Below are positions 5,325 through 41,713 of a stretch of DNA of 64,000 nucleotides, one piece after another. A program made the translations under genes and the position numbers. The stretch is from positions 19,862 to 83,861 of the forward strand of contig DAOUFJ010000018.1 of the NCBI GenBank assembly GCA_034429935.1, given 5' to 3'. Below the pieces are notes generated by a model. The model saw only the letters and a list, made by a program, of their open reading frames with translations, searched no databases and had not been told where the DNA came from. Each line of letters begins with the position of its first letter. Positions within the stretch are counted from its first letter, which is position 1. This DNA comes from Dehalococcoidales bacterium (GTDB taxonomy: Bacteria > Chloroflexota > Dehalococcoidia > Dehalococcoidales > UBA5627).

Positions 5325-8036
5325 TCATTGCTTTTCCCGCTTTGCATTTCCTTTGCTAGCGACGGTTTTCTTTTTAACCGGAAGTTCTATGATTATCGAT
5401 GCGCCATGCCCGCTTTTACTTCTGGCGTAAATCTTGCCGCCGTGCTGGCTTATAATCCCATGACATATGCTTAAACCGAGACCTGTTCCCATTCCCACTT
5501 CTTTGGTTGTAAAGAACGGTTCGAATATTTTACCCAGGTTTTCCTTGCTGATGCCTGGTCCGTTGTCGGTAAAAGATATTTTGATAATTCCGTCGATATG
5601 TTCTGTTTTCACAAGAAATGTTCTGTTTTTTACCTGCTCCAGGGCATATTCGGCATTTAAAATTATGTTCATAAATACCTGCTGCATTTGCCCCCTGTCA
5701 CCGACGGTATTTGGCAGCGATGGCGATAGTTCGGTTTTAACTTTGATATTATTCATTTTCATCGTATACAAACGCAATTCCAATGTATCCGAAATAATCT
5801 CGTTAATATCGATAATAGACCACCCTTGCTTCTGCTGGCGGGCAAATGTAAGCAGTCCGGAGACTATTTTGGCAACACGTTGTGCTTCCTGATTGATAGT
5901 TTTCAGGTCTTTTTTTATCGAATCATGTGTGACTTTTATTTTATCTTCGGGGAGTTTTATTGTTTCAGGAGGTATTGTATTCATAAGTAGTTGAGAAAAG
6001 CCGATAATGCTGGTAAGCGGGTTATTGATTTCGTGAGCTATCCCTGAAGCCATCTCTCCGATGGATGCCAGACGGCTGGTGATATCGATCTCCTGCTGCA
6101 TCTGTTTTTCTTTTTCCTCGGCATTTTTCTGTTCTGTGATATCCTGTATTGAACCGAACAGCTCAATAGGCTTGCCGGTTTCACCTAATATTGCCCTGGA
6201 TTTAGAGTTGGCAAACCAGATTTCCCCGTCTTTGCGGTAAAAACGGGAAACTATATCAAAGGGCGTACCTTTATCAATGTTTGCATTCATTGCTTTATTT
6301 AATAATTCTCTGTCATCTGCATGAGCCAGGCTCAAATATAGTTCTTTTGATGGGGGTACCTCACCGGGTTGATATCCAAAAAGACGATACATTTCATTAC
6401 TCCAGAACAGCTCCCCGGTTTTAATATCACGATGCCAGTTCCCCAATTTGGCAATTTCCTGGGCTTCAGCTAAACGGGTTTCGCTCTCGCGTAACTTCCT
6501 TTCAGCTTGTTTACTATCGGTAATATCCTGCCAAACACATTGATAAACTTTCCCACTTGCGGTATTTACCAACTGTGCGATTACATGTATATTGCGAATT
6601 TTTCCGTGTTTAGTGCGATGTAGTGTTTCAAAATCTGCGCTGCCCTCTTTCTGAACCTTTAAAATAGAAGCCTTGGTTTCAGCAGCGGTTTCCTTGGCCT
6701 CAATATCCATTATAGTTAGAGTTGCGAATTCTTCACGGGAATAACCAAGCTGCCGGCAGGCAATTTCATTAAATTCCATTATATGTGCTGTTGTTGGGTC
6801 AATAATTACGATACCAACAGGAGTCTGCTCAAACAGTGTGTTCCGTCTGAATATTTCTTCAGCTAATGCTTCTTCCATTTTCTTGCGTTCATCGATGTTT
6901 GTAACGATCGACAATATCGCTATGTTTTCCTCATTTTCGTTTTTTATAGTTTGAGACGCGGCATCAATCCATAATTTTCTATTCCTGGTTTTTATCAGGT
7001 GTTCGGAATGTATATAACCAATAGTCTTTAGTTTCTTGAAATTTTTTTTGATTTCCGCTTGTGAAGGTTTTATTATATCCATTATATCGAATATCTTCTC
7101 GCCTATAGCTTCGGATGCGTTGACGCCGTAAATCATCTCGCTTGCTTCGTTCCAGTATGTTATATTGAATTCCGTATCGGTGATAATGACGCCCTCTTTG
7201 ATAGCTTTGAAAGCAGCATCCGAAAAGTGTAAAGCTTCTTCTATTTTTTTGCGTTTAGTAATGTCTGTAACAATTGCCAGAATGGCTACTTCATTGCCAT
7301 TGTCATCTTTTACTTTTTGTAAAACCACATCAGTCCACAGTTGAGTTGCTGGAGTCTTTACGAGATGTTCAAAATGGGCATATCCTTCTATCTCAAAATT
7401 TTGAAATTGTAGCTTGACCTCAGGTTCCAGCGGTTCTATTATCTTGATAACGTCAAATAAATTTTTACCGATCACTTCCGGGGCATTTACTCCGAAAATA
7501 CGTTCGACGGCATCGTTCAATTGTATTATTTCCCTGCTATTATTCAGAATAAGAGTTCCTTCTTGAATTGATTTAAAAGCGATGTCGGAAAGTTTCTGTT
7601 CTTCTTGAGTTTTCTTGAATTCGGAGCGATCGAAAACAAAAATAATATTACCGATAAGTGTGTGTGTGCCCTTTTGTTCGATCGGGATAATGGTTATAGA
7701 TATATATCCGTTTGACCCGTCTTTTTTTATCAGCTCGACATCACACATTAAAGTGGCTTCGCTGGATGCGCTTTTTTTATGAGGGAAATCGGTGAGTTTC
7801 TTCCTTTCTTCGGCAGGGATGAACTCCAGTTCGGATATATGTTTGCCAATAATTTCATTCTCTTTGTAGCCGGTAATTTCTTCTATTCTATTGTTGAGAT
7901 AAACAGTTACCCCGTTAAAATCTACAAAACAAAACCCGTATGTCGACTCACCCAGGTAGGTTTTCATGATATCGATAAAACTGCCGATTTCCTTGTATTT
8001 ATCTTTTGACGATAATGTTTCAATAAAACTTTTCAT
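5325..8036 (-). CDS. Cytoplasmic multi-PAS sensor histidine kinase (paralogue of 2581-4497)
   Basis: 903 aa. At least five PAS/PAC units, several ending in ...DIT(K/E)RKK(I/M)EE... H-box AHEINNPLTSIIGFSQLL, ATPase boxes DNGPGI and GTGLGLS. The N-terminus is collinear with that of the 638-aa kinase. Confidence 0.9.
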   Translation of the reverse strand: MKSFIETLSSKDKYKEIGSFIDIMKTYLGESTYGFCFVDFNGVTVYLNNRIEEITGYKENEIIGKHISELEFIPAEERKKLTDFPHKKSASSEATLMCDVELIKKDGSNGYISITIIPIEQKGTHTLIGNIIFVFDRSEFKKTQEEQKLSDIAFKSIQEGTLILNNSREIIQLNDAVERIFGVNAPEVIGKNLFDVIKIIEPLEPEVKLQFQNFEIEGYAHFEHLVKTPATQLWTDVVLQKVKDDNGNEVAILAIVTDITKRKKIEEALHFSDAAFKAIKEGVIITDTEFNITYWNEASEMIYGVNASEAIGEKIFDIMDIIKPSQAEIKKNFKKLKTIGYIHSEHLIKTRNRKLWIDAASQTIKNENEENIAILSIVTNIDERKKMEEALAEEIFRRNTLFEQTPVGIVIIDPTTAHIMEFNEIACRQLGYSREEFATLTIMDIEAKETAAETKASILKVQKEGSADFETLHRTKHGKIRNIHVIAQLVNTASGKVYQCVWQDITDSKQAERKLRESETRLAEAQEIAKLGNWHRDIKTGELFWSNEMYRLFGYQPGEVPPSKELYLSLAHADDRELLNKAMNANIDKGTPFDIVSRFYRKDGEIWFANSKSRAILGETGKPIELFGSIQDITEQKNAEEKEKQMQQEIDITSRLASIGEMASGIAHEINNPLTSIIGFSQLLMNTIPPETIKLPEDKIKVTHDSIKKDLKTINQEAQRVAKIVSGLLTFARQQKQGWSIIDINEIISDTLELRLYTMKMNNIKVKTELSPSLPNTVGDRGQMQQVFMNIILNAEYALEQVKNRTFLVKTEHIDGIIKISFTDNGPGISKENLGKIFEPFFTTKEVGMGTGLGLSICHGIISQHGGKIYARSKSGHGASIIIELPVKKKTVASKGNAKREKQ

Positions 8037-8281: not shown

Positions 8282-8986
8282 TTATTTATCATGCTTATCG
8301 CATGATTTTTTCCACTCGTTTCCGATATCGAACCAAAGGTCATTGAAGATATAAGCCTGAACGGAATCCACATCGACCAGGTAACTTATAAAATTACCGA
8401 GATTATCTCTTTTGACCTGTTTGCAATATTCGTTGAGCAGGGGGATTATGCGTGACGGGAAGATGTAACAGGCGGTCGATACGAGGCTGGACTGGGGATT
8501 ACGTGGTTTTTCTGTCAGTTCGACAACCCTTGTATTATCCATCCTGACGACTCCGAACTGGCGCGCTTCGTTCCTGTCTCCGATGTCATATACAGCTATC
8601 AGTGTATTGAGTTTGTCAAAGGCGGACAGGAAGTCGGCAAGATTCATTTCGAAATAGTTATCGCCGGCAATAACCAGCAGGTCATCATCGATGTTGTTGC
8701 CTTTGACCCAGTAATCCAGCGAGCCGACGGCTCCCAGCATTTGCTCCTCGTTATCCACCGGTTCCACCCATATTTCGGCATGTCTGCCGAGCCTTTTTTG
8801 CCAATCATGATATTGCGAGGCAAATTTACGATTGGTGGTGACAAAAATATCGATACCATCCGGTATTTTTTCAACGATGTAGCTGACGACCGGTTTACCC
8901 TTATAAGGAAGTAACCCCTTGGCGGTCTTTTGCGTTACGGGATACAACCTGGTGCCGAACCCGCTGGCCAGAATTAAACACTTCAT
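8282..8986 (-). CDS. Sugar-1-phosphate nucleotidylyltransferase (NTP_transferase family)
   Basis: 234 aa. N-terminal signature LILASGFGTRLYPVTQKTAKGLLP (GxGTRL) and a Rossmann-like fold pattern. Substrate cannot be assigned. Confidence 0.8.
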   Translation of the reverse strand: MKCLILASGFGTRLYPVTQKTAKGLLPYKGKPVVSYIVEKIPDGIDIFVTTNRKFASQYHDWQKRLGRHAEIWVEPVDNEEQMLGAVGSLDYWVKGNNIDDDLLVIAGDNYFEMNLADFLSAFDKLNTLIAVYDIGDRNEARQFGVVRMDNTRVVELTEKPRNPQSSLVSTACYIFPSRIIPLLNEYCKQVKRDNLGNFISYLVDVDSVQAYIFNDLWFDIGNEWKKSCDKHDK

Positions 8987-9160
8987 ATTTCTGATATTCG
9001 ATGGTTCCTGTACTGGTTTAATGTAGCATAGTATATTTGCGGCTGCAAATATTGCATTAATTCTTACTTAAAGCTGCTAAGATGTTGAATTTACGGGTTG
9101 TTTTGAATAATATAAATGTCTGCCGGAAAAATGGGTGACAGACATGAAGGTTGTTTTTTA

Positions 9161-10516
9161 TTAGGAAGTAAGCACATTGGGTTCGGGGGTGAATATCTTC
9201 TCTTCTTGCGGTTTCCTTGCTACAAAAATCAATATGAATACTATTATCATCAGCAAGTTGCGGCGTGCCATTATAAAGACCGGGAAATTCTCGAAATACT
9301 CGAATTCAATATAGTTGAACGGGTATATATATATTGTAAAAGCTCCGGCTATGAGCAGAAGCACGCTGACAAGATTTTTATAGCGGATGTTAAGTATCGG
9401 TATCAGGGGGCAAATCCAGACCATATACTGGGCCGAAAATACCTTGTTAAAGAGCAGGAAGGCCAGTACGGCAATGGCAACATAACGTATGAGCAGCGTT
9501 TCCGTCTCTACCTGTAAAGGGGCTGCCCCGATAGCCTTTTTCCCGTTTCTGTGCAGCTGATAGGCGAACAGCCCGTATGTCGCCAGCAATACGGCAGCCA
9601 TAATATAGAAAGAGATGTTCGCAAGGTTATCTGCCAGGGCGGAAGTAATATTAAAGGAGCCGTAGTTAAAATCGTAATCCACCTGCGTCCATCCGAAAAG
9701 CTGCCCCATTATGACAAATGAGCCGTAGGTGCTTTCGGCATGGAGCCCCCTTTCCAGATGGTAGGAAAACATCGACCATAATGACTGTGGTTCTATAATC
9801 AGCCATGGGATAATCGTGGCGAGAATCACGCCTCCGAAAACAGCGACGCCTTTTGCCAGTTGGGAATACTGTTTTTTGATTAGCAGCCAGATTGCAAAGA
9901 GCGGGGCTATAACAATCGGGAAAATCTTTGCCATTACTCCGAGGGCAAGAACCCCCCAGGCCGTCTTGTTTTTACCGCCGATGAAGGCGGCTACGGCTGC
10001 CAGCGCCATTACTGCAGGCGCCAGGTCGTAACGCTGGGTTACAATAGGGCCGGCGGTTATTGCTATAAGCAGAGTATAGATGGCAAGTGCCTTGACCTTT
10101 GATATGTTGATGCGCTTGGATATATAGGCAATAAGAAATATCGCCAGTATATCGAAAAGCAGCATTTCTACGGTGAAGGCGATGTAGTAGGGCGGGAGTG
10201 TCCGGAACAGCAATCCCGGTATGAGGAAAAGGAGCAACGCTACAGGCGGATATTCGCAATCGAAATCGACATAGGGTATTTGCCCGCTTAGAATATTCTG
10301 GGCGATGATATTTTCTATAGCTCCCGGGGTGGGGGCATAATAATCGTAGAATCCATAAGTCCAGCCCAGGAAAACCCCCAGAAAGAGTATGGCGTGTATA
10401 ATAATCCAGAAAGGCATTTTTTGAGACAGCCTTTCCAGTCCGCTGCATGCTTTTCCGTATATGTTGCAGGAGCTTTTCAGTATCAGGGTACCTGTTTCCT
10501 TTCTCGTGCTGCTCAT
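9161..10516 (-). CDS. Polytopic membrane glycosyltransferase, DUF2029/GT87-like
   Basis: 451 aa, about 11 hydrophobic helices. The first-loop motif IPYVDFDCEYPPVA resembles DUF2029-type polyprenyl-phosphate-sugar-dependent transferases (from memory, not searched). Sits next to the nucleotidyltransferase. Confidence 0.55.
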   Translation of the reverse strand: MSSTRKETGTLILKSSCNIYGKACSGLERLSQKMPFWIIIHAILFLGVFLGWTYGFYDYYAPTPGAIENIIAQNILSGQIPYVDFDCEYPPVALLLFLIPGLLFRTLPPYYIAFTVEMLLFDILAIFLIAYISKRINISKVKALAIYTLLIAITAGPIVTQRYDLAPAVMALAAVAAFIGGKNKTAWGVLALGVMAKIFPIVIAPLFAIWLLIKKQYSQLAKGVAVFGGVILATIIPWLIIEPQSLWSMFSYHLERGLHAESTYGSFVIMGQLFGWTQVDYDFNYGSFNITSALADNLANISFYIMAAVLLATYGLFAYQLHRNGKKAIGAAPLQVETETLLIRYVAIAVLAFLLFNKVFSAQYMVWICPLIPILNIRYKNLVSVLLLIAGAFTIYIYPFNYIEFEYFENFPVFIMARRNLLMIIVFILIFVARKPQEEKIFTPEPNVLTS

Positions 10517-10844: not shown

Positions 10845-11327
10845 TTATACCAGTTTTTTCTGGTAAAGAATTTTCCCGTCTCCGGGGGCATAGAAATCGG
10901 GGATATTGCAGATTTCCACGTAATTATTGGCGATATAAAAACGGCGAGTCTTATCATACTGTTCTTTTCCCGAGGTTTCGATAAACGCCATCTTGCCGCC
11001 GGCTTTAGCTATCTGCTCTTCGGCGGCCTTTAATAGAGTACCGCCTATCCCTTTTCCCTGTAGCCTGTGGTCGACTGCCAGCCAGTAAAGATCCCATGAA
11101 CTCTGTGTCAGGGGAATTTGCCCGTAACTGATAAAGCCGATAAGTTCTCCTGTTTCGGATTCCGCTGCCATGGAGAAATATCCGGAGGCTTGCGGATTAT
11201 CCAGCGAGCCGTCGACAACCTCTTCGGCGATGACGACTTCCTCCGGTGTAAACTCAGGTGTGTTTTTGAGGATTATCATCAATGAAGGCTTATCCTCTTT
11301 TTTCAGAGGGCGTATTTTAACAGCCAT
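10845..11327 (-). CDS. GNAT-family N-acetyltransferase (last gene of the kamA operon)
   Basis: 160 aa. Acetyl-CoA motif A in HRLQGKGIGGTLLKAAEEQIAKAGG. Overlaps the upstream ATP-grasp gene by 11 nt. Confidence 0.85.
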   Translation of the reverse strand: MAVKIRPLKKEDKPSLMIILKNTPEFTPEEVVIAEEVVDGSLDNPQASGYFSMAAESETGELIGFISYGQIPLTQSSWDLYWLAVDHRLQGKGIGGTLLKAAEEQIAKAGGKMAFIETSGKEQYDKTRRFYIANNYVEICNIPDFYAPGDGKILYQKKLV

Positions 11328-12324
11328 ATTTTCTCTCCCATCCCAGTTGCACTATTTTTTCTATAAAATCATTATATGTCATTCCGTAGGCTTTTGCCTG
11401 GCGGCTGGCACCTGCATCGGGGGAAATATCCGGATTGGGATTGACTTCTATAACATATACATGTCCGCCTTCATCCATCCTCATATCCACTCTGGCATAA
11501 CCGCTGCACCCTGTGATTGCATACGCTTGCAGTGCTGCCTCGGTTATATCCCTCTTCGTAACCAGATCTAAATCAGCCGGGCATTGCGGCTGCGTTCCCC
11601 TGTAATAGATGCTGCCGGTTTCCCATTTGGCTTCATAATTCAATATTTTGGGCATACCTGCAGGCAAGGAAAAACATATCTCCGAAACCGGCAGGGGAGT
11701 CAAAATGTTATTACCCATTATCGTCATATTGAACTCACGCCCGTCGATATATTCTTCTACCAGCGCTTTTTCTTTGTAAATCCGGTTGATGCCGGAAACC
11801 ATTTCTTTCAGCGAATCATAATCATTGACGACGCTTTTTGTTGTCAGACTGTGGCTGGCATCTTCCGCATTCGGTTTGACGATGCAGGGGAACTCGAGGT
11901 TGAAATCGGGCAGTGTGGCTTCGTCCAGCAATTGAAAAGGCGGGGTACTGATGCCTTCTTTTTGTAAAACGGTTTTGGTGGCGGCTTTATCCAGCGCCAG
12001 CCTCAATGCCGGTGCCGGAGAGCCGGTATAGCGTAATTTCAGAGATTCCAGTTTATCTGCCATCTCGGCTTCCGTTTCGGAGAAGCCGCTGAACCCCTCG
12101 AACAGGTTAAACACGAGGTCATCTTTTATATTGGATAAACTGTTGAAGGCCTGTTCTTTCGGCAGCGCAAGCGGGATTTTAGATGTCAGGTACCCCAGCG
12201 ACTGCAATGCCTTTTCCACTGCGGCTACCTCTACCAGAACGCCCTCTTCGGCAGCCTGTTCGTTCCTGGCGGAATACAAACTCCCATCAGGCTGATTATA
12301 TATTATTGCAATACTGACAGGCAT
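11317..12324 (-). CDS. ATP-grasp ligase, D-Ala-D-Ala-ligase-like (copy 2)
   Basis: 335 aa. Ddl-family layout: pre-ATP-grasp domain, FPCIVKPNAEDASHSL, EEYIDGREF, ARVDMRMDEGGHVYVIEVNPNPD. Overlaps the upstream gene by 22 nt. Confidence 0.8.
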   Translation of the reverse strand: MPVSIAIIYNQPDGSLYSARNEQAAEEGVLVEVAAVEKALQSLGYLTSKIPLALPKEQAFNSLSNIKDDLVFNLFEGFSGFSETEAEMADKLESLKLRYTGSPAPALRLALDKAATKTVLQKEGISTPPFQLLDEATLPDFNLEFPCIVKPNAEDASHSLTTKSVVNDYDSLKEMVSGINRIYKEKALVEEYIDGREFNMTIMGNNILTPLPVSEICFSLPAGMPKILNYEAKWETGSIYYRGTQPQCPADLDLVTKRDITEAALQAYAITGCSGYARVDMRMDEGGHVYVIEVNPNPDISPDAGASRQAKAYGMTYNDFIEKIVQLGWERKYGC

Positions 12325-13313
12325 GGCGAATACCTTTTTACCGCTGTGTCAAGTATCCTTTTTATCAGTTCTTTGTGGGGAATTCCGATCATTCCGGCCA
12401 TAATTACCAGGTCGCTGTGGTTCCCCAGTCCCGGCAGCGGATTTATCTCCAGAAAGTAAGGAGTTCCATTGCTATCAATTCTGAAATCGATGCGGGCAAA
12501 ATCGCGGCAGCCCAGTATTCCGAATATTTTGAGGCTGGCATCTTTCAGCCTTTTTATAACCGATACATCCAGTTTCGGGGGGCATTCGTAATCCACCAGC
12601 TTTAAATAATCCCTTTTTACCTCGATGGAATACACGAAGTGTTCCGTCTTTTTCCGGGGGAGGATGCGCATCATTGCCAATACCTGTGCCGGTTCATTTC
12701 CTGTAATGCCTATGGTAACCTCGTCCCCGCTGATAAATTCCTCTACCATGACTTCCTGATGATAACCCTCGAATTGCCTTTTAGCTTCGGTTTCCAGTTC
12801 CTTCATGTTCATCACCACTGATGACAGCCTGACCCCCTTGCTGGAACCTTCGTGCGCCGGTTTTATCATCAACGGAAATTTGAAAACGTTCCAGTCTATC
12901 GATTGCAGTTCTTTGAAATCCGTTAACATCTGCCATCTGGGAGTAATCACTCCCTCCATGGCAACTATCTTTTTGGTCAGTTCCTTATCCAGGCATATTC
13001 CAAGGCAAAGCGGGTCTGACCCCGAGTAGGGTATATCCAGCATCTCCAGGATGGAGGGAACCTGCGATTCACGGCTGCGGTAGTTGCCCTGTCCCTCGGC
13101 GATATTGAATACGAAATCCACTTTCTCCCTGCGTATATTGTCGAGGAAAGCTCTCCCTCCGCCGAATAACGTTACCTGATGCCCGTTGGCTTCGATGGAG
13201 GATTTTATCAGTTCAACGGTCTCCATGGAGTCGTATTCCTCCATGGAGTCGTCTATATATTCATTTACCGGAGGTTTATCCGGTTTGAGGTCAAACGATA
13301 ACCCTATCCGCAT
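12303..13313 (-). CDS. ATP-grasp ligase, D-Ala-D-Ala-ligase-like (copy 1)
   Basis: 336 aa. FPLMIKPAHEGSSKGV, EEFISGDEVT, ARIDFRIDSNGTPYFLEINPLPGL. Overlaps kamA by 23 nt. Confidence 0.8.
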   Translation of the reverse strand: MRIGLSFDLKPDKPPVNEYIDDSMEEYDSMETVELIKSSIEANGHQVTLFGGGRAFLDNIRREKVDFVFNIAEGQGNYRSRESQVPSILEMLDIPYSGSDPLCLGICLDKELTKKIVAMEGVITPRWQMLTDFKELQSIDWNVFKFPLMIKPAHEGSSKGVRLSSVVMNMKELETEAKRQFEGYHQEVMVEEFISGDEVTIGITGNEPAQVLAMMRILPRKKTEHFVYSIEVKRDYLKLVDYECPPKLDVSVIKRLKDASLKIFGILGCRDFARIDFRIDSNGTPYFLEINPLPGLGNHSDLVIMAGMIGIPHKELIKRILDTAVKRYSPCLSVLQ

Positions 13314-14625
13314 CCCTTACCTCTGAAAGATTAAAATCGAGATTCTTCACTGTTATTTCAGGTTCCGGGCGCGGTTTGACCTGTTTTTCTGCCGTCGGGT
13401 TGTGACAGGTGATGACACGGCCCTGATAGTTACTGAACAGAACTTCTTTTTCCGTCTTGGCTAACAGGTAGTTGGGTTGCAGAGTGACTTTACCTCCGCC
13501 CTGAGGCAGGTCTACCACGAAGTTGGGTATTGCCAGCCCTGAAGTAAAGCCGCGCATCCCTTCGATAATTTTAACCCCGACATCTATATTGGTACGCAAG
13601 TGGTCGGTTCCCTGTACCTCGTCGCACTGGAAGAGGTAATAGGGGCGGACTTTTATCTTTAACAATCCCTGGCATAACCTGGTCTGTTTTTCGACGGTAT
13701 CGTTAATACCGCGCATCAGGACGCTCTGGTTATTTACAGGGACACCGGCGCGGACAATGCGGTCGATAGCCGCTGCCGAATCCGGGGTTATCTCGTTAAC
13801 AGTGTTAAAATGGGTATTCATCCATATCGGCCCGTACTCCGATAACATATCACAGAATTCGCTGTCGATACGCTGCGGCAGAACTACCGGGAAACGGGTG
13901 CCGATACGTATAATCTCGACATGATTTATCTGCCTCAGCCTCGAGATGACGCTTTCAAGATGTTTGGTCGAGAGCGTCAGGCAGTCTCCGCCGGAGATAA
14001 TAACGTCTCTGACGTTTTTGTTATGGCGTATGTAGTTCAACATCGCCTCTATTTCTTCGGGGGTGCGTACCCAGTCACCGTTTTTCCACTCACGTTTGCG
14101 TGTACAGTGACGGCACAGCATCGGACAGATATCTGTGAGCACCATGAGCACCCTGTCCGGATATCTGTGTACCAGCCCGGGAACGACCGAATCCCTTTCC
14201 TCTTCAAGCGGGTCCTCGACGCCGGAAGTTCTGACGGTTATTTCCTCGATGGAAGGAATAGCCTGCCTGGCAACCGGGTCTTTGGGATTGTTTAAGTCCA
14301 TAAGTGAAAGATAATAAGGAGTAATTGCTAACGGATAAGTTTGGGTTACCGCGCTTATTTCAGCATATCTTTTGATAGATAAAGGGGCATACTTTGCCAG
14401 TTGCTCAACTGAGGTTATGCGGTTGCGGAACTGCCATTTCCAATCGTTCCAATCCGTGTCGGAGACTGCTCCGAAGAGTCTGAATCTATTAGATGCGGGG
14501 GTGCGTTGGGGGGGCTCTGATTCACTACAGCTACTGGGGGGTTCGTCATCACCTTCGCTGCTGTAGCTGTCTAAGAGGGTGTCCATGGAATTACTACTGC
14601 ACCTTGTTTTTAATTTTGTCTTCAC
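13291..14625 (-). CDS. kamA: Lysine 2,3-aminomutase (KamA-family radical-SAM/PLP enzyme)
   Basis: 444 aa. Collinear by eye with Clostridium subterminale LAM (sequence recalled from memory): DWNDWKWQFRNRI, AITPYYLSL, HRYPDRVL, radical-SAM CPMLCRHCTRKR, NQSVLMRGIND, RPYYLFQCDEVQG, NFVVDLPQGGGK. GTG start at 14625, with an alternative ATG at 14586. Carries a roughly 50-aa Ser/Asp/Glu/Pro-rich N-terminal extension. Confidence 0.88.
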   Translation of the reverse strand: MKTKLKTRCSSNSMDTLLDSYSSEGDDEPPSSCSESEPPQRTPASNRFRLFGAVSDTDWNDWKWQFRNRITSVEQLAKYAPLSIKRYAEISAVTQTYPLAITPYYLSLMDLNNPKDPVARQAIPSIEEITVRTSGVEDPLEEERDSVVPGLVHRYPDRVLMVLTDICPMLCRHCTRKREWKNGDWVRTPEEIEAMLNYIRHNKNVRDVIISGGDCLTLSTKHLESVISRLRQINHVEIIRIGTRFPVVLPQRIDSEFCDMLSEYGPIWMNTHFNTVNEITPDSAAAIDRIVRAGVPVNNQSVLMRGINDTVEKQTRLCQGLLKIKVRPYYLFQCDEVQGTDHLRTNIDVGVKIIEGMRGFTSGLAIPNFVVDLPQGGGKVTLQPNYLLAKTEKEVLFSNYQGRVITCHNPTAEKQVKPRPEPEITVKNLDFNLSEVRDADRVIV

Positions 14626-14886
14626 CTGTTTAATTATTTCTCCTTTATTATCCTGAAAGTATCTTCGACTTATTTTATATTTTCTGTTTGTACTTAGTTC
14701 TTTTAATACTCTATATATTCTATTATAAATATTTTTTTGTAAATGTAAATATACCTGTCCGCAAGCAGCATATGATTTAAATGGATGATATTCTAATCTT
14801 TCGGTAATAAGATTGCAAGTGGTATTTGTATTTGAGACTGTTATAGAATATAAAAATATTTTTAAAGGGATTTAGGAGGTGCGAAG

Positions 14887-15996
14887 ATGAAAGACATTCG
14901 AGTAGAAAAACTGGCTGACCTTCTGGTCAGGTATTCCGTATCCGTACAGAAAGGCGATAAGGTCAAGATACGGGGGGATTATGCCGCCGCTCCCATGGTA
15001 AAAGCTGTTTATGCCGAGGTATTGAAAGCGGGGGGGCATCCCATCGTATTCATGGAACCGGAAGGCCTGACCGAAGTATTCTATAAATACGCATCCGAAG
15101 AACAGCTTAAATTCATCCATCCGCCCGAGAAGCTAATGATGGATACATATGATGTTACGATAAGCCTGGGCGGTGAAAGTAATACCAAGGCATTGAGCAA
15201 AATCGATCCTTTACGCATGGTCACACGCCATCAGGCAAGGACTGAACTGATGAATACCCAGATGCGGCGTTCCGCCGATGGGGAATTCCGCTGGACTTAC
15301 GCCATCTTCCCGACCAATGCCTATGCGCAGGATGCCGAGATGAGCCTTTCGGAATACGAGGATTTTGTTTACAGTGCCTGTCTGCCGGATATGGACGACC
15401 CTGTGGGTTACTGGCAGCGTTTTTCAAAACGGCAGGAGAATATCATCCAGTGGCTGGAGGGAAAGAAAACGGTCTATATAAGAGGAGAGGAGACTGAAAT
15501 TACTCTCAGCATCGAAGGCCGCCCCTTTATAAACTGCGACGGGCGTTACAACATGCCTGACGGAGAGGTATTTACCAGCCCGGTTGAGAATAGTGTTAAC
15601 GGTCACGTTTATTTCTCCTATCCGGCTATCGAGGATGGCAAAGAGGTGACCGGTATCAGGTTGTGGTTCGAAAACGGCAAAGTGGTGAAAGCCAGCGCCG
15701 AGAAGAACGAGGATTTTCTGCTTAAAATGCTGGATACGGATGCCGGTTCACGCACGCTCGGCGAATTCGCCATCGGCACCAGCCCCAATATTAACAAGTT
15801 TACCCGTGAAATACTCTTCGACGAGAAAATCAACGGCAGTTTTCACATGGCGCTGGGGGCCGGTTACCCGGAAAGCGGCAGCAAGAACGAATCGGCGATT
15901 CATTGGGATATGATATGCGACCTGAGAAACGGCGGAGAAATCCGCGTCGACGGGGACGTGCTGCACAAGAACGGCAGGTTCGTTATCGATTTTTAG
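14887..15996 (+). CDS. Family M29 aminopeptidase (AmpS/PepS/aminopeptidase T type)
   Basis: 369 aa. EKLADLLVRYSVSVQKGDKV at the start and EFAIGTSPNI...FDEKINGSFHMALG...AIHWDMI at the end, typical of thermophilic-metalloprotease M29. SD GGAGGTG lies upstream of the ATG. Transcribed divergently from kamA. Confidence 0.85.
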   Translation: MKDIRVEKLADLLVRYSVSVQKGDKVKIRGDYAAAPMVKAVYAEVLKAGGHPIVFMEPEGLTEVFYKYASEEQLKFIHPPEKLMMDTYDVTISLGGESNTKALSKIDPLRMVTRHQARTELMNTQMRRSADGEFRWTYAIFPTNAYAQDAEMSLSEYEDFVYSACLPDMDDPVGYWQRFSKRQENIIQWLEGKKTVYIRGEETEITLSIEGRPFINCDGRYNMPDGEVFTSPVENSVNGHVYFSYPAIEDGKEVTGIRLWFENGKVVKASAEKNEDFLLKMLDTDAGSRTLGEFAIGTSPNINKFTREILFDEKINGSFHMALGAGYPESGSKNESAIHWDMICDLRNGGEIRVDGDVLHKNGRFVIDF

Positions 15997-17294: not shown

Positions 17295-18893
17295 ATGAGG
17301 TTTTCTTTCTACAATATGACCAACTCAAATACCAAAGGGAATGGTTATCTAATTAAAGATAAATGGTATAAGACTATTGTTCAAACTGCCACGGAAGGCT
17401 TTTCCTTGCTGGATAATATCGGGAAAATTGTAGACGTCAATGATTCCTATTGTAATATGATTGGCTACCATCGAGACGAGCTTCTCTCAATGAGTATACA
17501 GGAAATTGATATTAGATTCCTTGATCAAATCGAGGTATTTGAGGAAGAAATCCGGAAAGTCAAAAAACTCGGCGGTATTGCGAGTGAAGTACAACATAAG
17601 ACCAAGAATGGTCAAATTGTTGATCTTTGGGTTAGTCTTAGATATCTGAATACAAATCCTGGCTTTCTATTCTGCTTTCATAGAGATATTACAGAAAAGA
17701 AGAGATTGCAGCAACAAATTATTGAATCCGAAGAAAGATATCGTGCTCTGATAGAAGTAGGCGACAGAATCGGAGAAGCTATTGTCATGTTGCAGAATAT
17801 TAAAAACATGGAGGGAATGCAGACTTTTGTTAGTGATGAATGGTGTTGTATTACTGGTTATACAAGGGAAGAATTGTTAAAGATGTCTTTTTTTGAAATT
17901 CTGCACCCCAGCTACTGTAAAGATACTCTGGATTGTCACCTTGGTAAAATAAATGGAGAAGATATTCCACGAAAAATCGAAGCGTCTATTATTAGGAAAG
18001 ATGGAAAAGAAATTCCCATAGAATTTACCAGTGCCTTTACCAGTTTTCATGGAAAGAGAGCTATTGTTGCCTATATCAGGGAAATCACTGAACGTAAGAA
18101 GATGGAAACTGAGCTTAAGAAATATCAAGAGAACCTTGAATATCTTGTAAAAGAGCGCACCAACAAGCTGGAAGGGATTATCAAGCAGCGGGTTGAATTT
18201 AATAGAGCTCTGGTACATGAGTTAAAAACGCCTCTCACAGCCATTATAAATTCCAGCGAATTATTGACTCAGCAACGCCGGGAGGAAACGACTCAAAGAT
18301 TAGCCCAAAATATATTTAAGGGGGGCATTTTTCTTAATAATAGAATCGATGAACTTCTCGATGTGATAAGAAGTGAGGTCGGGTCACTATGTGTTAATTG
18401 TAAATCTATTGACCCGATTAAACAAATTCGCGAGGCAGTCGAGGAAATGTCTTCATTAGCCGCGAGAAAAGGGCAATCCATTATTTTGAACATTCCAGAT
18501 GAACTGCCCGAAATCTGGGCTGATAAACAGAGGATGCAGCAGGTTCTATTGAATCTGATTTCCAACGCTATAAAATTTAATTCCGATGAAGGCAGGGTAA
18601 TTATAAGAGCAAGAGAAAAAGATAATTATGTGATTTTCGAGATTGTGGATGAGGGTAAAGGAATAAGTAGCGCAGAAGCGCTGAGGTTGTTTGAACCTTA
18701 TTACCGGAAAGAGAGTGACCGTGATCATCTCAGTGGTTTAGGTCTAGGCTTGTCCCTGTCCAAGAAATTGGTAGAACTCCATAATGGAAAAATATGGTAT
18801 AAAAAACGAGATGGAATTAATGGAAGTATATTTGGTTTTTCGATACCTGTATCAAGTACGGTGGGAGTACAAACGGAGGCAGAAAATGAATGA
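17295..18893 (+). CDS. PAS-domain sensor histidine kinase
   Basis: 532 aa. Two PAS units, H-box VHELKTPLTAIINSSELL, ATPase boxes LISNAIKFN, DEGKGI, GLGLGLS. Visibly more AT-rich than the flanking genes (by eye). Confidence 0.9.
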   Translation: MRFSFYNMTNSNTKGNGYLIKDKWYKTIVQTATEGFSLLDNIGKIVDVNDSYCNMIGYHRDELLSMSIQEIDIRFLDQIEVFEEEIRKVKKLGGIASEVQHKTKNGQIVDLWVSLRYLNTNPGFLFCFHRDITEKKRLQQQIIESEERYRALIEVGDRIGEAIVMLQNIKNMEGMQTFVSDEWCCITGYTREELLKMSFFEILHPSYCKDTLDCHLGKINGEDIPRKIEASIIRKDGKEIPIEFTSAFTSFHGKRAIVAYIREITERKKMETELKKYQENLEYLVKERTNKLEGIIKQRVEFNRALVHELKTPLTAIINSSELLTQQRREETTQRLAQNIFKGGIFLNNRIDELLDVIRSEVGSLCVNCKSIDPIKQIREAVEEMSSLAARKGQSIILNIPDELPEIWADKQRMQQVLLNLISNAIKFNSDEGRVIIRAREKDNYVIFEIVDEGKGISSAEALRLFEPYYRKESDRDHLSGLGLGLSLSKKLVELHNGKIWYKKRDGINGSIFGFSIPVSSTVGVQTEAENE

Positions 18894-20381: not shown

Positions 20382-23345
20382 TTGAAAGAAGAAAAAAGAA
20401 AACACACAGAGAATGAAGGGAAAAAGCAATCTAATGAAGTTTCGAGAAGAGACTTTCTGGTTGGTGCCAGCACTGTAGTCGTTGGTGGCGCTATCGGCGC
20501 TGGAATGTTTTCAAGCTGCGATGGAGAAACTGTTACCAAGACGATTGAGACCACTAAGACAGTTGAAAAGACAACGACGTTGGTTGGTAGTGGGGCGGTT
20601 ACCGTAACTGAGACCAAACAGGTGGGAGCTGATGAGACGATAACTTCAACAGTTACTTCCACTAAAATAGAAGGTGGCGTTGAGCCGGCATTTGAGGAAG
20701 AGACAACTGTAATAAAACAAATTAGTCCCGGTGGTATAACCGGAGAGCCTTGCTGCGTTGATGTCAAGAACGGCAAAATAGTCAGGATCAGACCGTTGCA
20801 TTATGACTGGAAGTATACTAAAGATGAACTTGCTGATGCCCTGTGGGCTTATGAGGCCAAAGGCAAGACTTTTGAAGCAGGCATAAAATCACTACCCAGT
20901 TACTTTGCCTTAGCCTATAAAAAGAGGATTTATTCCCCTATTAGAACCAAATATCCGCTACAGAGAGTCGATTGGGAGCCCGGTGGCGGCGACAATGTGA
21001 ATCCGCAGAATCGTGGTAAAAGCAAGTTCAAGAGAATTACTTGGGATGAGGCTACCAGTATAGTCGCCAGCGAAATAAAGAGGGTAAGAGAGACATATGG
21101 TAATTATGCCATATTATGTATAGGAGCAGACGGGCATCACGAGACCAAGAATGTTCATTCCGGCCAGGGTGCTCATATGATGCTTATGAATTTGTGTGGA
21201 GGTTATACCCTCGAGTTCAGGAATGCCGACAGCTGGGAAGGATGGTACTGGGGGGCGATGCATGTATGGGGAACCGGAGAAAACGGGCTTGCGGCTGGGA
21301 ATGCATCAGCAACCGTTACCGGAGACACCATAGAGGTAAACTCTATGCAGACTTCACTTTTCGATACTTCAGAGAACACTGAGATGATTGTGTATACGGG
21401 CTGTGATTATGAGACTACACCCCAGGGATTTGCCGGCCAGTATATGAGCAGAGTGGCGTCTTGGCTGGGAGAATTGGGAATAAAACAGGTATATGTATCG
21501 CCCGAACTGAATTATCAGGGCGCCGCACATCCGGACAAATGGATACCGGTACTGCCCAACACGGATATGTGCTGGCAAATGGCTGTGATATATATCTGGA
21601 TAGTGGAGGATACCTACGACAAAGATTTTGTTGAGACTCATACAATAGGTTTTGATAAGATAAGGGCCTATATCTTGGGAGAAGATGATGGTATTCCCAA
21701 GACGCCAGCGTGGGCGGCACCGAGGTGTGGCATGAAAGAGTGGACGATTAAGGCTCTGGCTAGGCAATGGGCGGCCAAAAAAACGTCAACAGGCCATTAC
21801 TTTGGAAGTCCTATGGCCAGGGGCCCGTATTCGACTGAACCGGCCAGGTGGGAAGCAGTACAGCTAGGAATGCAGGGGATAGGTAAACCGGGTGTCATGC
21901 AACTCTACGGCTCGACGCTGGCTGCACCTCCCCATGTCGGGCCGGCGGTCGGGATGACAATGGCGTTAGGCAGGTATCTGCCATTCTCGGCTACGCCACA
22001 GGTTATCGCCAGGACTCTGGTTCACCGGGCTATTATAGACGGACATTCCGAGCAATGGGGTCTTACCGGATTCATGCCGGTTGACGACCAGTTTATTAAA
22101 TATATCTACCCAATAGCCTCCGATGAGGGAGGTACCGAGATCCATATGGCATGGAGTGAAAAGCCCTGTAATACTGCTTGTTGGAACCATAGTAACAAGT
22201 TCATAGATGCCTTCAGAACCTCTAAGATAGAATGCTATGTCGTTAATCATCAATGGCTTCAGAACGATGCTATATTTGCCGATATAGTATTTCCTGTTAG
22301 CTGCCAGTGTGAGGAAGACGATATATATTCTATCTCGACCCCTTGCTCTGTAGAACTGGCGGGCGTTTGCGTATCGAAAAAGGCTGTAAAACCCATAGGG
22401 GAGTCTAAGAGCGACTACGAGATAGCTGCTGCGGTGTCCAAAAAGTTGGAGGAGTATGGTGGCCAGTATGAAGGTCTGTACGACGCATATACCGAAGACA
22501 TGACTATTGAAGAGAGGATAGAATCGGGCTTTGCGCAGTTTGAACTGGATGACATAATCAGTTGGGAGGATATGCAGGAAAAGCAGTACTGTTTAACTCC
22601 GCTGGTGCCCGGTTGGGAACAAATAAAGCCTACTATGAAATCGTTTTATGACGACCCCGAGTCAAACCCGCTGGATCTGCCATCAGGCAAAATGGAGTTT
22701 TATTCTGATAGATTGGCTACAAGCTTCCCTGATGACAAAGAAAGAGGGCCAATGCCTAAATATGTAATAGGCGGCCCTGAATCTGAAGGTTGGATACATG
22801 ATGAAAGTCTATATGGTGAGAGGGTAAAAAAGTATCCTCTGCTTCTGGAAGCGAACCATCCAAGGTGGAGACATCATCCGCAATGTGATGATATAGCCTG
22901 GTTCAGGGAAATCCCGACTATGAAGATCAAAGGTTACGATGGCTATATGTACGAGCCGGTCTGGATACATCCCACAACTGCTGCAGAGAGGGGCATAGAG
23001 CATGGTGATATCGTTAAAGTATATAACGATAGAGGAATCGAGCTCGGTGGAGCCTATGTAACTGAAAGGATGATCCCCGGAGCAGCACATATGGATCACG
23101 GCGCTGCAGTTGACATGATAACGGATAGAATTAATAGAGGAGGAACTGTCAATCCAATAACACCTGAGATGGGAAGTTCTAAATATTGTTGGGGAATGGC
23201 TGTATCCGGTTTTCTGGTTCAAGTTGAAAAGCTTGATCCGGCGCAGATGGAGGAATGGCGAAAGACTTATCCTGAAGCATTTGCCAGAGATTATGATCCG
23301 GCCTATGGAATTAAATATGATGGTTGGGTTGAAAAGGAGGTATAG
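20382..23345 (+). CDS. Exported molybdopterin (DMSO-reductase-superfamily) oxidoreductase catalytic subunit; TAT signal + lipobox + Thr-rich stalk; pyrogallol-transhydroxylase-like (no FS0 Cys motif)
   Basis: 987 aa. Twin-arginine SRRDFLVG (RR at 20445-20450), hydrophobic region, then MFSSC (Cys46 at 20517-20519). About 65 aa of T/V/E/K-rich linker follows. The molybdopterin fold then starts at CCVDVKNGKIVRIRP without a CxxCxxxC...C cluster motif. C-terminal MopB_CT-like barrel (GDIVKVYNDRGIELGGAYVTERMIPGAAHMDHG). Confidence 0.8.
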   Translation: MKEEKRKHTENEGKKQSNEVSRRDFLVGASTVVVGGAIGAGMFSSCDGETVTKTIETTKTVEKTTTLVGSGAVTVTETKQVGADETITSTVTSTKIEGGVEPAFEEETTVIKQISPGGITGEPCCVDVKNGKIVRIRPLHYDWKYTKDELADALWAYEAKGKTFEAGIKSLPSYFALAYKKRIYSPIRTKYPLQRVDWEPGGGDNVNPQNRGKSKFKRITWDEATSIVASEIKRVRETYGNYAILCIGADGHHETKNVHSGQGAHMMLMNLCGGYTLEFRNADSWEGWYWGAMHVWGTGENGLAAGNASATVTGDTIEVNSMQTSLFDTSENTEMIVYTGCDYETTPQGFAGQYMSRVASWLGELGIKQVYVSPELNYQGAAHPDKWIPVLPNTDMCWQMAVIYIWIVEDTYDKDFVETHTIGFDKIRAYILGEDDGIPKTPAWAAPRCGMKEWTIKALARQWAAKKTSTGHYFGSPMARGPYSTEPARWEAVQLGMQGIGKPGVMQLYGSTLAAPPHVGPAVGMTMALGRYLPFSATPQVIARTLVHRAIIDGHSEQWGLTGFMPVDDQFIKYIYPIASDEGGTEIHMAWSEKPCNTACWNHSNKFIDAFRTSKIECYVVNHQWLQNDAIFADIVFPVSCQCEEDDIYSISTPCSVELAGVCVSKKAVKPIGESKSDYEIAAAVSKKLEEYGGQYEGLYDAYTEDMTIEERIESGFAQFELDDIISWEDMQEKQYCLTPLVPGWEQIKPTMKSFYDDPESNPLDLPSGKMEFYSDRLATSFPDDKERGPMPKYVIGGPESEGWIHDESLYGERVKKYPLLLEANHPRWRHHPQCDDIAWFREIPTMKIKGYDGYMYEPVWIHPTTAAERGIEHGDIVKVYNDRGIELGGAYVTERMIPGAAHMDHGAAVDMITDRINRGGTVNPITPEMGSSKYCWGMAVSGFLVQVEKLDPAQMEEWRKTYPEAFARDYDPAYGIKYDGWVEKEV

Positions 23346-34440: not shown

Positions 34441-34442
34441 TT

Positions 34443-38584: not shown

Positions 38585-38654
38585 GAAAGGGGGTGGTGCT
38601 TAATAGCACAATTGCCATACAGGCAACAAATACTATTAAACATGGAGGATATAA

Positions 38655-41699: not shown

Positions 41700-41713
41700 A
41701 GTATTATCTTAAA

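Follow-up and report, generated by a model that had tools for sequence, protein, structure and literature searches.

A conserved operon in Dehalococcoidia predicted to build an N-acetyl-capped beta-lysine amide or peptide

Four overlapping genes on a Dehalococcoidales contig encode a KamA-family aminomutase, two Ddl-like ATP-grasp ligases (AG1 and AG2) and a small GNAT-family acetyltransferase, and we read them as a single operon whose product would be a defined small beta-lysine amide or peptide capped by N-acetylation, a reading that comparative sequence analysis supports at a probability of about 0.55. The arrangement itself is real and no chance juxtaposition, as the same order recurs in a colinear four-gene module in 37 of 68 species-level loci. 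No description of the cluster was found in the literature searched.

Organisation of the locus

The window (the whole stretch of DNA analysed, 64,000 nucleotides) carries the operon on its minus strand at 10845-14625, and ORF calls place the relevant features as follows:

13291-14625, minus strand: KamA-family radical-SAM/PLP lysine 2,3-aminomutase (predicted), 444 aa, GTG start, operon gene 1
12303-13313, minus strand: AG1, Ddl-like ATP-grasp amide ligase 1, 336 aa
11317-12324, minus strand: AG2, Ddl-like ATP-grasp amide ligase 2, 335 aa
10845-11327, minus strand: small GNAT N-acetyltransferase, 160 aa, final operon gene
14626-14886, no strand: divergent AT-rich control region separating kamA from the M29 gene, 261 bp
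14887-15996, plus strand: M29 (AmpS/PepS/AmpT-type) aminopeptidase, 369 aa, divergent from the operon
32769-34955: ectA, ectB and ectC
36445-39521: ProV/OpuA-type ABC transporter

The layout given in the preliminary description stands in every particular: the ORF coordinates reproduce exactly the overlaps that couple the four genes (23 nt for KamA/AG1, 22 nt for AG1/AG2 and 11 nt for AG2/GNAT), the divergent spacer, put there at some 260 bp and AT-rich, has a GC content of 25.7% against 48% for the operon, and ectABC and opuA, placed there about 20 kb off, lie about 18-25 kb away. On the minus strand the spacer contains a near-consensus sigma-70-like promoter (TTTACA-16-TATAAT, 14749 to 14722, 11 of 12 matches), and AAGGAG at 14645-14640 precedes the kamA GTG (14625) by 14 nt. 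No Rfam family was found within the window, and none of its ORFs in or adjoining the operon is a transporter gene.

Conservation of the cluster

About 10 more of the 68 loci are interrupted merely by contig ends. The gene order is shared by at least six bacterial phyla, with the four-gene module present in Chloroflexota, Acidobacteriota, Bacteroidota, Desulfovibrionales, Desulfobacterales, Pirellulales and Woeseia. As a unit, it is kept well beyond related genomes. Its spread across phyla is patchy; within Dehalococcoidia it is near-universal over dozens of species. Fused forms also occur, namely four KamA-AG1 proteins (P0408, P0494, P0508 and P0490) and, among the top 150 representatives, 16 AG1-AG2 fusions; at locus L085 an AG1-AG2 fusion is flanked by KamA and GNAT. 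Reduced forms exist as well: some lineages have KamA and AG1 but nothing recognisable as AG2 or GNAT, and variants in WOR-3 and Omnitrophota are without GNAT.

The aminomutase

KamA, composed of Radical_SAM and LAM_C domains, scores 334 bits against TIGR00238 (cut-off 199) and stays under all curated equivalog cut-offs: 453 bits against 525 for AblA, its top NCBIfam match, 437 against 650 for glutamate 2,3-aminomutase, 391 against 600 for arginine 2,3-aminomutase and 235 against 369 for EpmB. None of the substrate, PLP and Fe-S residues of the Clostridium enzyme (PDB 2A5H), with which it shares 51% identity, has been lost; in that alignment the cysteines of CPMLCRHC are C167, C171 and C174, and Clostridium R134, D293, D330 and K337 correspond to R176, D335, D372 and K379. 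These residues are invariant in all 51 of 51 cluster-linked KamAs. The motif and the two acidic lysine-binding residues claimed earlier are therefore present, and the choice of lysine as substrate that had been drawn from them is upheld by the D/D pair at positions 293/330, which KamA shares with LAM and AblA, compared with D/T in the arginine aminomutase BlsG. For glutamate 2,3-aminomutase a K/N pair is reported at those two positions. Since the aspartate pair is also found in EF-P-type aminomutases (D/D or D/E), it indicates lysine use, not pathway.

In a tree built without any glutamate 2,3-aminomutase reference sequence, the window KamA is placed outside the LAM+AblA clade, and the EF-P-linked clade is separate from it in 99 of 100 bootstraps; with 27% identity to EpmB, it does not group with that enzyme. 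The cluster KamAs are not monophyletic (0 of 100 bootstraps), which would mean either that the aminomutase partner was exchanged or that AblA/LAM arose inside the group. KamA is accordingly best described as a predicted lysine-type 2,3-aminomutase making beta-lysine, by virtue of its identity to the crystallised enzyme.

The two ligases

Both ligases share fold and Pfam domain with DdlB/VanA-type enzymes (Dala_Dala_lig_C, 132 bits for AG1 and 98 for AG2), match Ddl structures in the PDB at 1e-25 to 1e-35, compared with about E = 2e-6 for the L-amino-acid ligase BL00235, and retain the DdlB residues for ATP, Mg and the transition state (K97, K144, K215, R255, D257, E270 and N272). The difference lies in the substrate site. 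With DdlB as reference, AG1 retains the amino-binding Glu (E15/16), S150 and S281, but has family-specific D18, E63 and D282 and is without Y216; AG2 carries the substitutions E15 to A, S150 to A, Y216 to W, G276 to D or C and L282 to G, which are kept across phyla. The two signatures thus differ from each other and span phyla, with AG2 orthologues at the matching position in Desulfovibrio, Pirellulales and Desulfobacterales. Identity with housekeeping Ddl was considered and rejected: against the best Ddl subfamily model AG1 reaches 190 bits and AG2 158 bits (cut-off 243), both fall under every curated Ddl or Van cut-off, and with their altered substrate-site residues the pair is not orthologous to Ddl. 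Both are operonic, even fused, with KamA and not with mur or fts genes; AG1 is the ligase with the tightest link to KamA.

The acetyltransferase

The GNAT protein belongs to Acetyltransf_1, and its NCBIfam matches are weak and generic. The earlier remark that it is shorter than AblB proved right (160 aa against 282-290 aa) and understated the distance, as there is neither a TIGR03827 match nor BLAST similarity to two AblB proteins; assignment as AblB was rejected. Its nearest structure is PDB 2R7H (E = 9e-26, residues 12-157, about 36-40% identity), a structural-genomics entry named "putative D-alanine N-acetyltransferase" from Desulfovibrio (Oleidesulfovibrio) alaskensis G20. That gene, which we take to be Dde_3044 (the order of genes with respect to Dde_3039 and Dde_3047 agrees with this), ends a kamA-AG1-AG2-GNAT cluster in its own genome and likewise in D. 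mangrovi. It is thus a direct homologue in the corresponding position, although in a different phylum and under sigma-54 activator control.

Neighbouring genes and alternative explanations

The aminopeptidase (Peptidase_M29, 312 bits; PDB AmpS, AmpT and PepS at about 1e-20) had been put forward as a partner of the cluster. This gained no support: it adjoins the cluster in only eight loci (L005-L009, L011, L013 and L047), all with KamA 79-91% identical to that of the window, while in 22 other loci its position is taken by a winged-HTH gene of about 100 aa. The adjacency may be a matter of inherited synteny and not of function, and M29 is seen here as a lineage-specific neighbour outside the conserved core, with turnover a possible role. 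Beyond the window's closest relatives, the cluster has regulator, transporter, HDAC-type deacetylase or other peptidase genes next to it.

The product could be an exported, bioactive cationic beta-lysine peptide (an antimicrobial, metal ligand or signal) for which the GNAT provides self-protection or a pro-form and deacetylases or peptidases activate or detoxify, in the manner of streptothricin acetyltransferases and microcin C MccE/MccF. Several lineages have MFS, MarC or DMT (DMT_6) transporter genes beside or within the cluster, including an MFS gene between a KamA-AG1 fusion and AG2 at L084; an S66 (MccF/LdcA family) peptidase gene follows one KamA-AG1 fusion, HDAC-type deacetylases (Hist_deacetyl) adjoin in D. 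mangrovi and Woeseia, and the patchy spread over phyla points the same way. However, these transporters are non-homologous and lineage-specific, the window operon has none, the core has no conserved companion gene dedicated to immunity or export, and near-universality in Dehalococcoidia, many of which have small genomes and few specialised-metabolite clusters, is not what such a peptide would predict. We regard this explanation as unlikely.

Somewhat less probable still is a polymer or oligomer, such as a cyanophycin-like nitrogen store or poly-beta-lysine, in which backbone extension and side-chain addition fall to one ligase each and adjacent peptidases serve as depolymerases. Synthetase and hydrolase genes do lie side by side as in cphA/cphB (M29, S66, and an S58 DmpA/BapA-family peptidase coupled to related tandem-ligase genes), the compound would be rich in nitrogen, and a sigma-54/NtrC-type activator governs the Desulfovibrio clusters, where D. 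mangrovi kamA has a -24/-12-like promoter 96 nt upstream. Yet each Ddl-type enzyme characterised so far is known to form one defined bond, a small end-product is the better match for a capping acetyltransferase, and neither a primer nor a carrier gene is conserved.

Attachment of beta-lysine to a macromolecule (EF-P, another protein or a cell-envelope peptide, as by EpmA/EpmB or RimK/LysX) is improbable. In EpmA/EpmB a KamA-family enzyme makes beta-lysine and an ATP-dependent enzyme joins it to an amine, KamA paralogues provide EF-P beta-lysine in other bacteria (in Rhizobium in the order efp-epmA-kamA-like), ATP-grasp enzymes can modify proteins, and RimI is the best NCBIfam match of the GNAT, though far under cut-off. 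A weak LysW-like zinc-ribbon ORF near one KamA-AG1 fusion could be counted alongside. But the EpmA ligase is a lysyl-tRNA-synthetase paralogue whose genes sit beside efp, and no efp was found in 83 related loci covering 0.85 Mb; the phylogenetic distance of KamA from EpmB adds to this. The window ligases are Ddl-type, a class known for acting on small molecules, and not RimK/LysX-type, the dedicated regulators vary by lineage (wHTH, sigma-54 EBP, HTH-cupin), and no candidate target gene is conserved nearby.

Lysine catabolism or beta-lysine detoxification is highly improbable: clostridial lysine fermentation starts with KamA, AblA is paired with an acetyltransferase in Bacillus (compare the kamA-yodP locus) and Peptoclostridium, and a kamA under sigma-54 control is known from Bacilli (PMC12316311), but a pair of amide ligases that spend ATP is anabolic, AblB/YodP and the GNAT are not related, and the neighbours annotated at the examined loci, judged by annotation, include no kamDE, kdd, kce or kal, nor an aminotransferase or CoA-transferase.

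A proposed pathway and its possible role

For the capped beta-lysine product that we favour, the closest precedent is the AblA/AblB pathway to N-epsilon-acetyl-beta-lysine in methanogens, some Bacillota and green sulfur bacteria, an operon of a long-form lysine 2,3-aminomutase, which agrees with KamA in its substrate, PLP and Fe-S residues, and an acetyltransferase, with the same logic of an acetylated beta-lysine product; the window operon departs from it in the placement of its KamA and the ancestry of its GNAT. Because two conserved ligases stand between KamA and GNAT, the end product would have to contain two more amide bonds. Biosynthesis of NAGGN (N-acetylglutaminylglutamine amide) by Ngg/AsnO, where GNAT activity and ATP-grasp ligation yield an N-acetyl-capped peptide osmolyte non-ribosomally, is a functional analogy, although it involves neither a beta-amino acid nor radical-SAM chemistry, relies on one bifunctional protein, Ngg, and needs an amidotransferase. 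BacD/YwfE, RizA/RizB, TabS and carnosine synthase are ATP-grasp enzymes that make short unusual peptides without ribosomes or NRPS, and carnosine synthase activates a beta-amino acid; none, however, is known to be coupled to an aminomutase, and the similarity of the L-amino-acid ligases to the window ligases is marginal.

In the proposed pathway, KamA would convert L-lysine to beta-lysine, and AG1, given its fusion to KamA, its donor-amine Glu and its extra conserved acidic residues, would spend ATP on the first amide bond, with the carboxylate of beta-lysine as the group most likely activated. AG2, fused to AG1 elsewhere, would form a second, different bond, and as it has lost the donor-amine Glu and Ser150, it probably takes an acyl donor with no free amine nearby. 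The GNAT would acetylate a remaining free amine, neutralising its charge and blocking aminopeptidases, such that the three reactive groups of beta-lysine would account for two ligations and one acetylation. We infer the partner substrates, the reaction order and the amine acetylated. Recycling would probably fall to non-homologous cluster-adjacent hydrolases (M29 here, HDAC-type or S66 elsewhere).

The osmolyte role suggested in the preliminary description is plausible but gained no support: among the carriers are genomes from groundwater, peat, Lake Baikal and digesters, ectABC and a ProV/OpuA-type transporter are already encoded in the window, and the three transporter families seen beside the cluster elsewhere fit export equally with retention. 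If a physiological role is to be named, the likeliest, though at low confidence, is that of a stress or compatible solute accumulated reversibly inside the cell.

Organization of the operon and its control region

The ORF listing of the window reproduces exactly the arrangement put forward in the preliminary description, namely a four-gene operon of overlapping minus-strand genes with a divergently transcribed M29 aminopeptidase gene, and the family assignments of all five genes are upheld by both Pfam and NCBIfam:

10845-11327, minus strand: GNAT-family protein (GNAT), 160 aa
11317-12324, minus strand: second Ddl-like ATP-grasp ligase (AG2), 335 aa
12303-13313, minus strand: first Ddl-like ATP-grasp ligase (AG1), 336 aa
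13291-14625, minus strand: lysine 2,3-aminomutase-type protein (KamA), 444 aa, GTG start
14887-15996, plus strand: M29 peptidase gene, divergent from kamA

The operon genes overlap by 23, 22 and 11 nt, and the nearest homologues are proteins of Dehalococcoidales MAGs that are 82-91% identical. The 261-bp spacer between kamA and the M29 gene has a GC content of 25.7% (versus 48% in the operon) and contains, for the operon, a predicted sigma-70-like promoter close to consensus (TTTACA-16-TATAAT, 14749->14722, 11 of 12 matches), and the motif AAGGAG lies 14 nt 5′ of the kamA GTG. An in-frame ATG at 14586 offers an alternative start for kamA, and residues 1-45 of KamA (14491-14625) form a Ser/Glu/Pro-rich N-terminal extension of about 45 residues that is missing in the crystallised Clostridium enzyme. 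Neither a riboswitch nor any other Rfam element was found in the window. Directly downstream of the operon lies a gene (9161-10516, minus strand) for a polytopic membrane protein of 451 aa that weakly matches GT87 glycosyltransferases, which is kept at this position in the seven closest relatives only.

The aminomutase

The only KamA model that the window protein passes is the generic TIGR00238 (334 bits, threshold 199); it falls below the more specific NCBIfam cut-offs for AblA (TIGR03820, 453 against 525.4 bits), glutamate 2,3-aminomutase (TIGR04368, 437 against 650), the arginine 2,3-aminomutase BlsG (TIGR04468, 391 against 600) and EpmB (235 against 369). KamA shares 51% identity with the Clostridium subterminale enzyme of known crystal structure (2A5H) and 27% with E. 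coli EpmB. The Fe-S cysteines C167, C171 and C174 and the PLP lysine K379 align with C125, C129, C132 and K337 of 2A5H, and the lysine-binding set is likewise kept, with R176 at the position of Arg134, which binds the carboxylate, and D335 and D372 at those of Asp293 and Asp330, which bind the epsilon-ammonium group. The CPMLCRHC motif and the two lysine-binding aspartates that had been read from the sequence are borne out by alignment, and the equivalents of all seven residues are present without exception in the 51 cluster-linked KamAs compared, which span several phyla. In Clostridium subterminale numbering, positions 293 and 330 are both Asp (D/D) in LAM, in AblA and throughout the cluster KamAs; BlsG has D/T and EpmB D/E. 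For glutamate 2,3-aminomutases, Lys and Asn are reported at these two positions. Where the Clostridium enzyme has its zinc-site Cys268, the cluster KamAs without exception carry Thr, Ser, Asp or Asn.

A neighbor-joining tree (100 bootstraps) was built with references taken from PGAP-annotated plasmid genes, comprising AblA with adjacent AblB, BlsG, and efp/epmA-linked 'AblA_like_2'. The EF-P-linked enzymes split from all other KamAs in 99 of 100 replicates, BlsG forms a clade of its own (100/100), and the cluster KamAs fall into two groups. The first, which holds the window protein and unites Dehalococcoidia with Omnitrophota (95/100), lies outside the LAM plus AblA clade; the second, with members from Desulfobacterota, Planctomycetota, Woeseia and Bacteroidota (94/100), groups with Deinococcus and LAM/AblA (88/100). 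The two groups bracket LAM/AblA, a single neo-functionalised clade of cluster KamAs can be ruled out (0/100), and together with the conserved residues these groupings make the cluster KamAs ordinary lysine-type aminomutases by sequence. KamA would convert L-lysine to beta-lysine.

The more specific identities fare poorly. An AblA equivalog is rejected on score and on the position of KamA outside the LAM plus AblA clade, and BlsG on score, on D/D versus D/T and on its separate clade. Grouping with EpmB, one of the two outcomes against which the lysine-type assignment had been set, was not seen; the other, a glutamate 2,3-aminomutase, is excluded on the HMM score and the retention of both aspartates, the references in the tree being LAM, AblA, BlsG and EF-P-linked enzymes.

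The two Ddl-like ligases

AG1 and AG2 match solely Ddl-type models and structures, including the Pfam domain Dala_Dala_lig_C (132 and 98 bits), and yet they score only 190 and 158 bits against the 243 required by NF002378, and all Ddl equivalogs are far under cut-off. In an alignment of 66 AG1 and 51 AG2 sequences against E. coli DdlB, whose numbering is used here, the equivalents of K97, K144, K215, R255, D257, E270 and N272 are invariant or nearly so in both sets. Because the residues for ATP, magnesium and catalysis are kept, both proteins should be active, catalytically competent ATP-dependent amide ligases. Neither is a housekeeping Ddl: besides the missed cut-offs, the E15-S150-Y216 triad and the S281/L282 pair are not intact in AG1 or AG2, and the earlier view of them as Ddl-like ATP-grasp enzymes distinct from the D-Ala-D-Ala ligase is accordingly upheld.

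The two sites are also unlike one another. In AG1 the amino-binding Glu for the acyl donor is retained along with S150 and S281, three acidic residues (D18, E63 and D282) are conserved, and Y216 is missing. The AG2 site carries alanine at positions 15 and 150, tryptophan at 216, aspartate or cysteine at 276 and glycine at 282. Judged from these residues, we infer that AG1 would take an amino acid carrying an additional positive charge, that is beta-lysine, and that the acyl donor of AG2 would be one without a free neighbouring amine. Both signatures, and the order AG1 then AG2, persist at 30-38% identity in Desulfovibrio, Pirellulales and Desulfobacterales.

The GNAT and its Desulfovibrio counterpart

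The GNAT matches PF00583 (Acetyltransf_1) with 41 bits and has an intact acetyl-CoA-binding motif of the R/Q-x-x-G-x-G/A type, RLQGKGIG; its NCBIfam matches are weak and generic, and AblB (TIGR03827) is absent among those at E <= 0.001. BLAST gave no meaningful alignment with either of two AblB sequences (282 and 290 aa), so that the remark that the 160-aa GNAT is shorter than AblB proves correct and an AblB identity is rejected on model, sequence and length.

The only solved structure to which it is strongly related is PDB 2R7H (E = 9e-26). By sequence search and neighbourhood analysis, the 2R7H gene is the last of a kamA-AG1-AG2-GNAT cluster in a D. alaskensis G20-type contig and in D. mangrovi, and we take the 2R7H protein to be Dde_3044. 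The D. alaskensis cluster is preceded by Dde_3039, a glycyl-radical enzyme (PMC4045070), and followed by Dde_3047, a SpoIIE phosphatase (PMC8836040). The agreement of gene order with these published tags implies that Dde_3040 is a sigma-54 activator and Dde_3041-3044 the cluster.

In two genomes an HDAC-family (Hist_deacetyl) gene adjoins the GNAT gene, at 8629-10386 of the D. mangrovi locus (L075), where it is fused to a second GNAT domain, and at 6505-8001 of the Woeseia locus (L077); neither HDAC-family protein matches an NCBIfam model. This juxtaposition suggests a paired cycle of acetylation and deacetylation.

Conservation, variants and fusions

A scan for AG1 with one genome per GTDB species gave 68 loci, of which 37 have all four genes present and colinear and about 10 more end at contig edges. 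Chloroflexota, Acidobacteriota and Bacteroidota have complete clusters, as do Desulfovibrionales, Desulfobacterales, Pirellulales and Woeseia, so the predicted unit of kamA, two ATP-grasp genes and a GNAT gene is indeed conserved across several phyla; the module as a whole is spread over Dehalococcoidia, Acidobacteriota, Bacteroidota, Planctomycetota, Desulfobacterota and Gammaproteobacteria. An exhaustive HMMER search of a library clustered at 50% identity returned 867 AG1 representatives at E <= 1e-30, and among the best 150 of these are 4 KamA/AG1 fusions, 16 AG1-AG2 fusions and 27 tandem AG1-like proteins. Between the KamA and GNAT genes of one locus lies an AG1-AG2 fusion gene. Taken together, the cross-phylum gene order, the tight or overlapping junctions and the fusions in both directions argue strongly for a single pathway, with a coupling that leads from KamA through AG1 to AG2.

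KamA and AG1 are joined in single polypeptides in either order (P0408, P0494, P0508 and P0490; L083 7001-9220 and L084 7001-9241). At L084 an MFS transporter gene separates the fusion from an AG2-like gene, and the neighbours of the L083 fusion are an S66 peptidase, a 374-aa ORF and a weakly LysW-like zinc-ribbon ORF.

Several loci depart from the full set. In WOR-3 the order is KamA, an unassigned ORF, AG1 and AG2, with GNAT absent, and in Omnitrophota a marginal ATP-grasp-like ORF comes after KamA and AG1; at one such locus (L059 8010-10496) this ORF, of 330 aa, reaches only 60% probability as an ATP-grasp match by hhalign and precedes a same-strand TreT trehalose synthase gene. Pfam and NCBIfam gave no match for the neighbour ORFs of 407 aa (L055), 327 aa (L078) and 374 aa (L083). 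Fimbriiglobus has AG1 and AG2 with no KamA nearby, and the AG1 homologue of Proteiniclasticum is likewise without one; the surroundings of these homologues are uninformative.

A separate family of about 650-720 aa, represented by P0362 and 26 similar proteins, consists of two tandem AG1-like Ddl domains. On a short contig in which KamA is absent (L082 670-3823), a ligase gene of this type and a Peptidase_S58 gene of the DmpA/BapA, D-/beta-aminopeptidase family are translationally coupled, and the pair may constitute a related ligase/peptidase system. A further pairing of aminomutase and ligase is found on symbiosis plasmids: on Rhizobium leguminosarum pRlvC (L087 4535-7143), a KamA-family gene whose product is about 46% identical to that of the window, with Cys at 330, directly follows an ATP-grasp gene annotated as biotin-carboxylase family, with an M81 metallopeptidase nearby. 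The annotated ablA of an Ilyobacter polytropus plasmid (L091 1465-3615) encodes 716 aa, about 290 aa more than other AblA proteins, and may be an AblA-AblB fusion.

Neighbours outside the core

The M29 gene was initially regarded as a possible turnover partner of the operon. Its product belongs to the AmpS/PepS/AmpT family (Peptidase_M29, 312 bits against 27; about 1e-20 to the solved members 1ZJC, 2AYI and 4ICQ) and its divergent position in the window stands, but it adjoins the cluster only in 8 close relatives, with KamAs 79-91% identical to that of the window, and is not conserved with the core. In 22 other Dehalococcoidia loci the divergent position is occupied by a winged-HTH gene of about 100 aa; neither this regulator nor MarC, which flank the cluster in other loci, has a homologue in the window. 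The remaining neighbours are also lineage-specific, and comprise regulators (sigma-54 activators, in D. mangrovi with a -24/-12-like promoter, and an HTH-cupin protein), transporters (MarC, MFS, DMT_6), hydrolases (HDAC-type deacetylases, an S66 peptidase and, beside a tandem AG1-like ligase, the S58 peptidase) and genes related to osmotic stress (TreT trehalose synthase, MscS channel). That non-homologous hydrolases recur next to the core suggests turnover of the product, to which the M29 peptidase itself is weakly linked.

Proposed pathway and role of the product

The enzyme families, their catalytic residues and the coupling and conservation of the genes permit a route to be predicted. KamA would convert lysine to beta-lysine, AG1 and AG2 would add two different amide bonds to it, and the GNAT would acetylate a remaining amine. 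Two ligations and one acetylation equal the three reactive groups of beta-lysine, which points to a small, defined and capped product rather than a polymer. We tentatively propose, with a probability of about 0.4, that this product represents a new class of non-ribosomal, ATP-grasp-built compound, an N-acetyl-capped, doubly amide-linked beta-lysine pseudo-tripeptide that is reversibly accumulated as a stress or compatible solute by anaerobes in at least six phyla, including most Dehalococcoidia, and recycled by lineage-specific deacetylases and aminopeptidases.

The intracellular stress-solute role is uncertain. In its favour are the analogy with AblAB and NAGGN, the hydrolase and deacetylase neighbours, and the many Dehalococcoidia species that carry the cluster; against it, many carriers come from non-saline habitats, transporter genes flank the cluster, and the organism already possesses a standard compatible-solute system. 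The ectABC and opuA genes reported some 20 kb away are present, the former as a complete ectoine operon whose products all score above curated NCBIfam cut-offs:

32769-33164, minus strand: ectC
33145-34440, minus strand: ectB
34443-34955, minus strand: ectA
36445-39521, plus strand: ProV/OpuA-type betaine/choline ABC transporter, near the ectoine operon

The wider window is typical of an anaerobic Dehalococcoidales genome, with a membrane-bound Ech/Mbh-like hydrogenase/antiporter module (40140-46739, minus strand), a molybdopterin oxidoreductase of 987 aa whose N-terminal domain is pyrogallol-hydroxytransferase-like (20382-23345, plus strand), an RnfC-like subunit (690-2018, minus strand) and multi-PAS histidine kinases (2581-4497, 5325-8036 and 17295-18893).

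The same flanking transporters would suit a rival reading, export of the product as a bioactive peptide. A polymer built by the two ligases is a further rival, and it is the matching of three reactions to three groups that speaks for a capped product instead. Modification of a macromolecule by beta-lysine, as in EF-P, would likewise begin with an aminomutase; a link to EF-P is rejected, as KamA lies far from the EpmB clade and none of the 83 cluster-related loci contains an efp gene. Lysine catabolism is the weakest alternative, and fermentation is rejected, as no downstream catabolic gene family occurs among the annotated neighbours at any locus. The original interpretation is thus partly supported: its pathway logic holds, and the osmolyte role and the M29 link are its unproven parts.

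Novelty and significance

No description of the cluster was found by full-text literature searches, although the 2009 amidoligase survey may contain an earlier in-silico mention; text matches to 'KamA' in two papers of the Aravind group are to the surname Kamada. All four enzymes belong to known superfamilies, and the pathway is uncharacterised and widely distributed. The nearest known pathway is AblAB, with which the cluster has two of its four activities in common. Few fates of beta-lysine are established, and the four known are acetylation to an osmolyte, attachment to EF-P, incorporation into antibiotics by NRPSs, and fermentation. The proposal is directly testable, since D. alaskensis G20 has the cluster, the structure of one of its four products has been solved by crystallography (2R7H), and an arrayed transposon library of this strain exists (PMC4045070).

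If the proposal is true, the cluster would add a fifth fate of beta-lysine, its elaboration by two dedicated Ddl-type ligases. The module occurs across phyla and is not peculiar to one genome, and its present labels, 'D-alanine--D-alanine ligase' and 'lysine 2,3-aminomutase', mislead metabolic reconstructions of uncultured anaerobes, in which they can be misread as, for example, peptidoglycan and N-epsilon-acetyl-beta-lysine.
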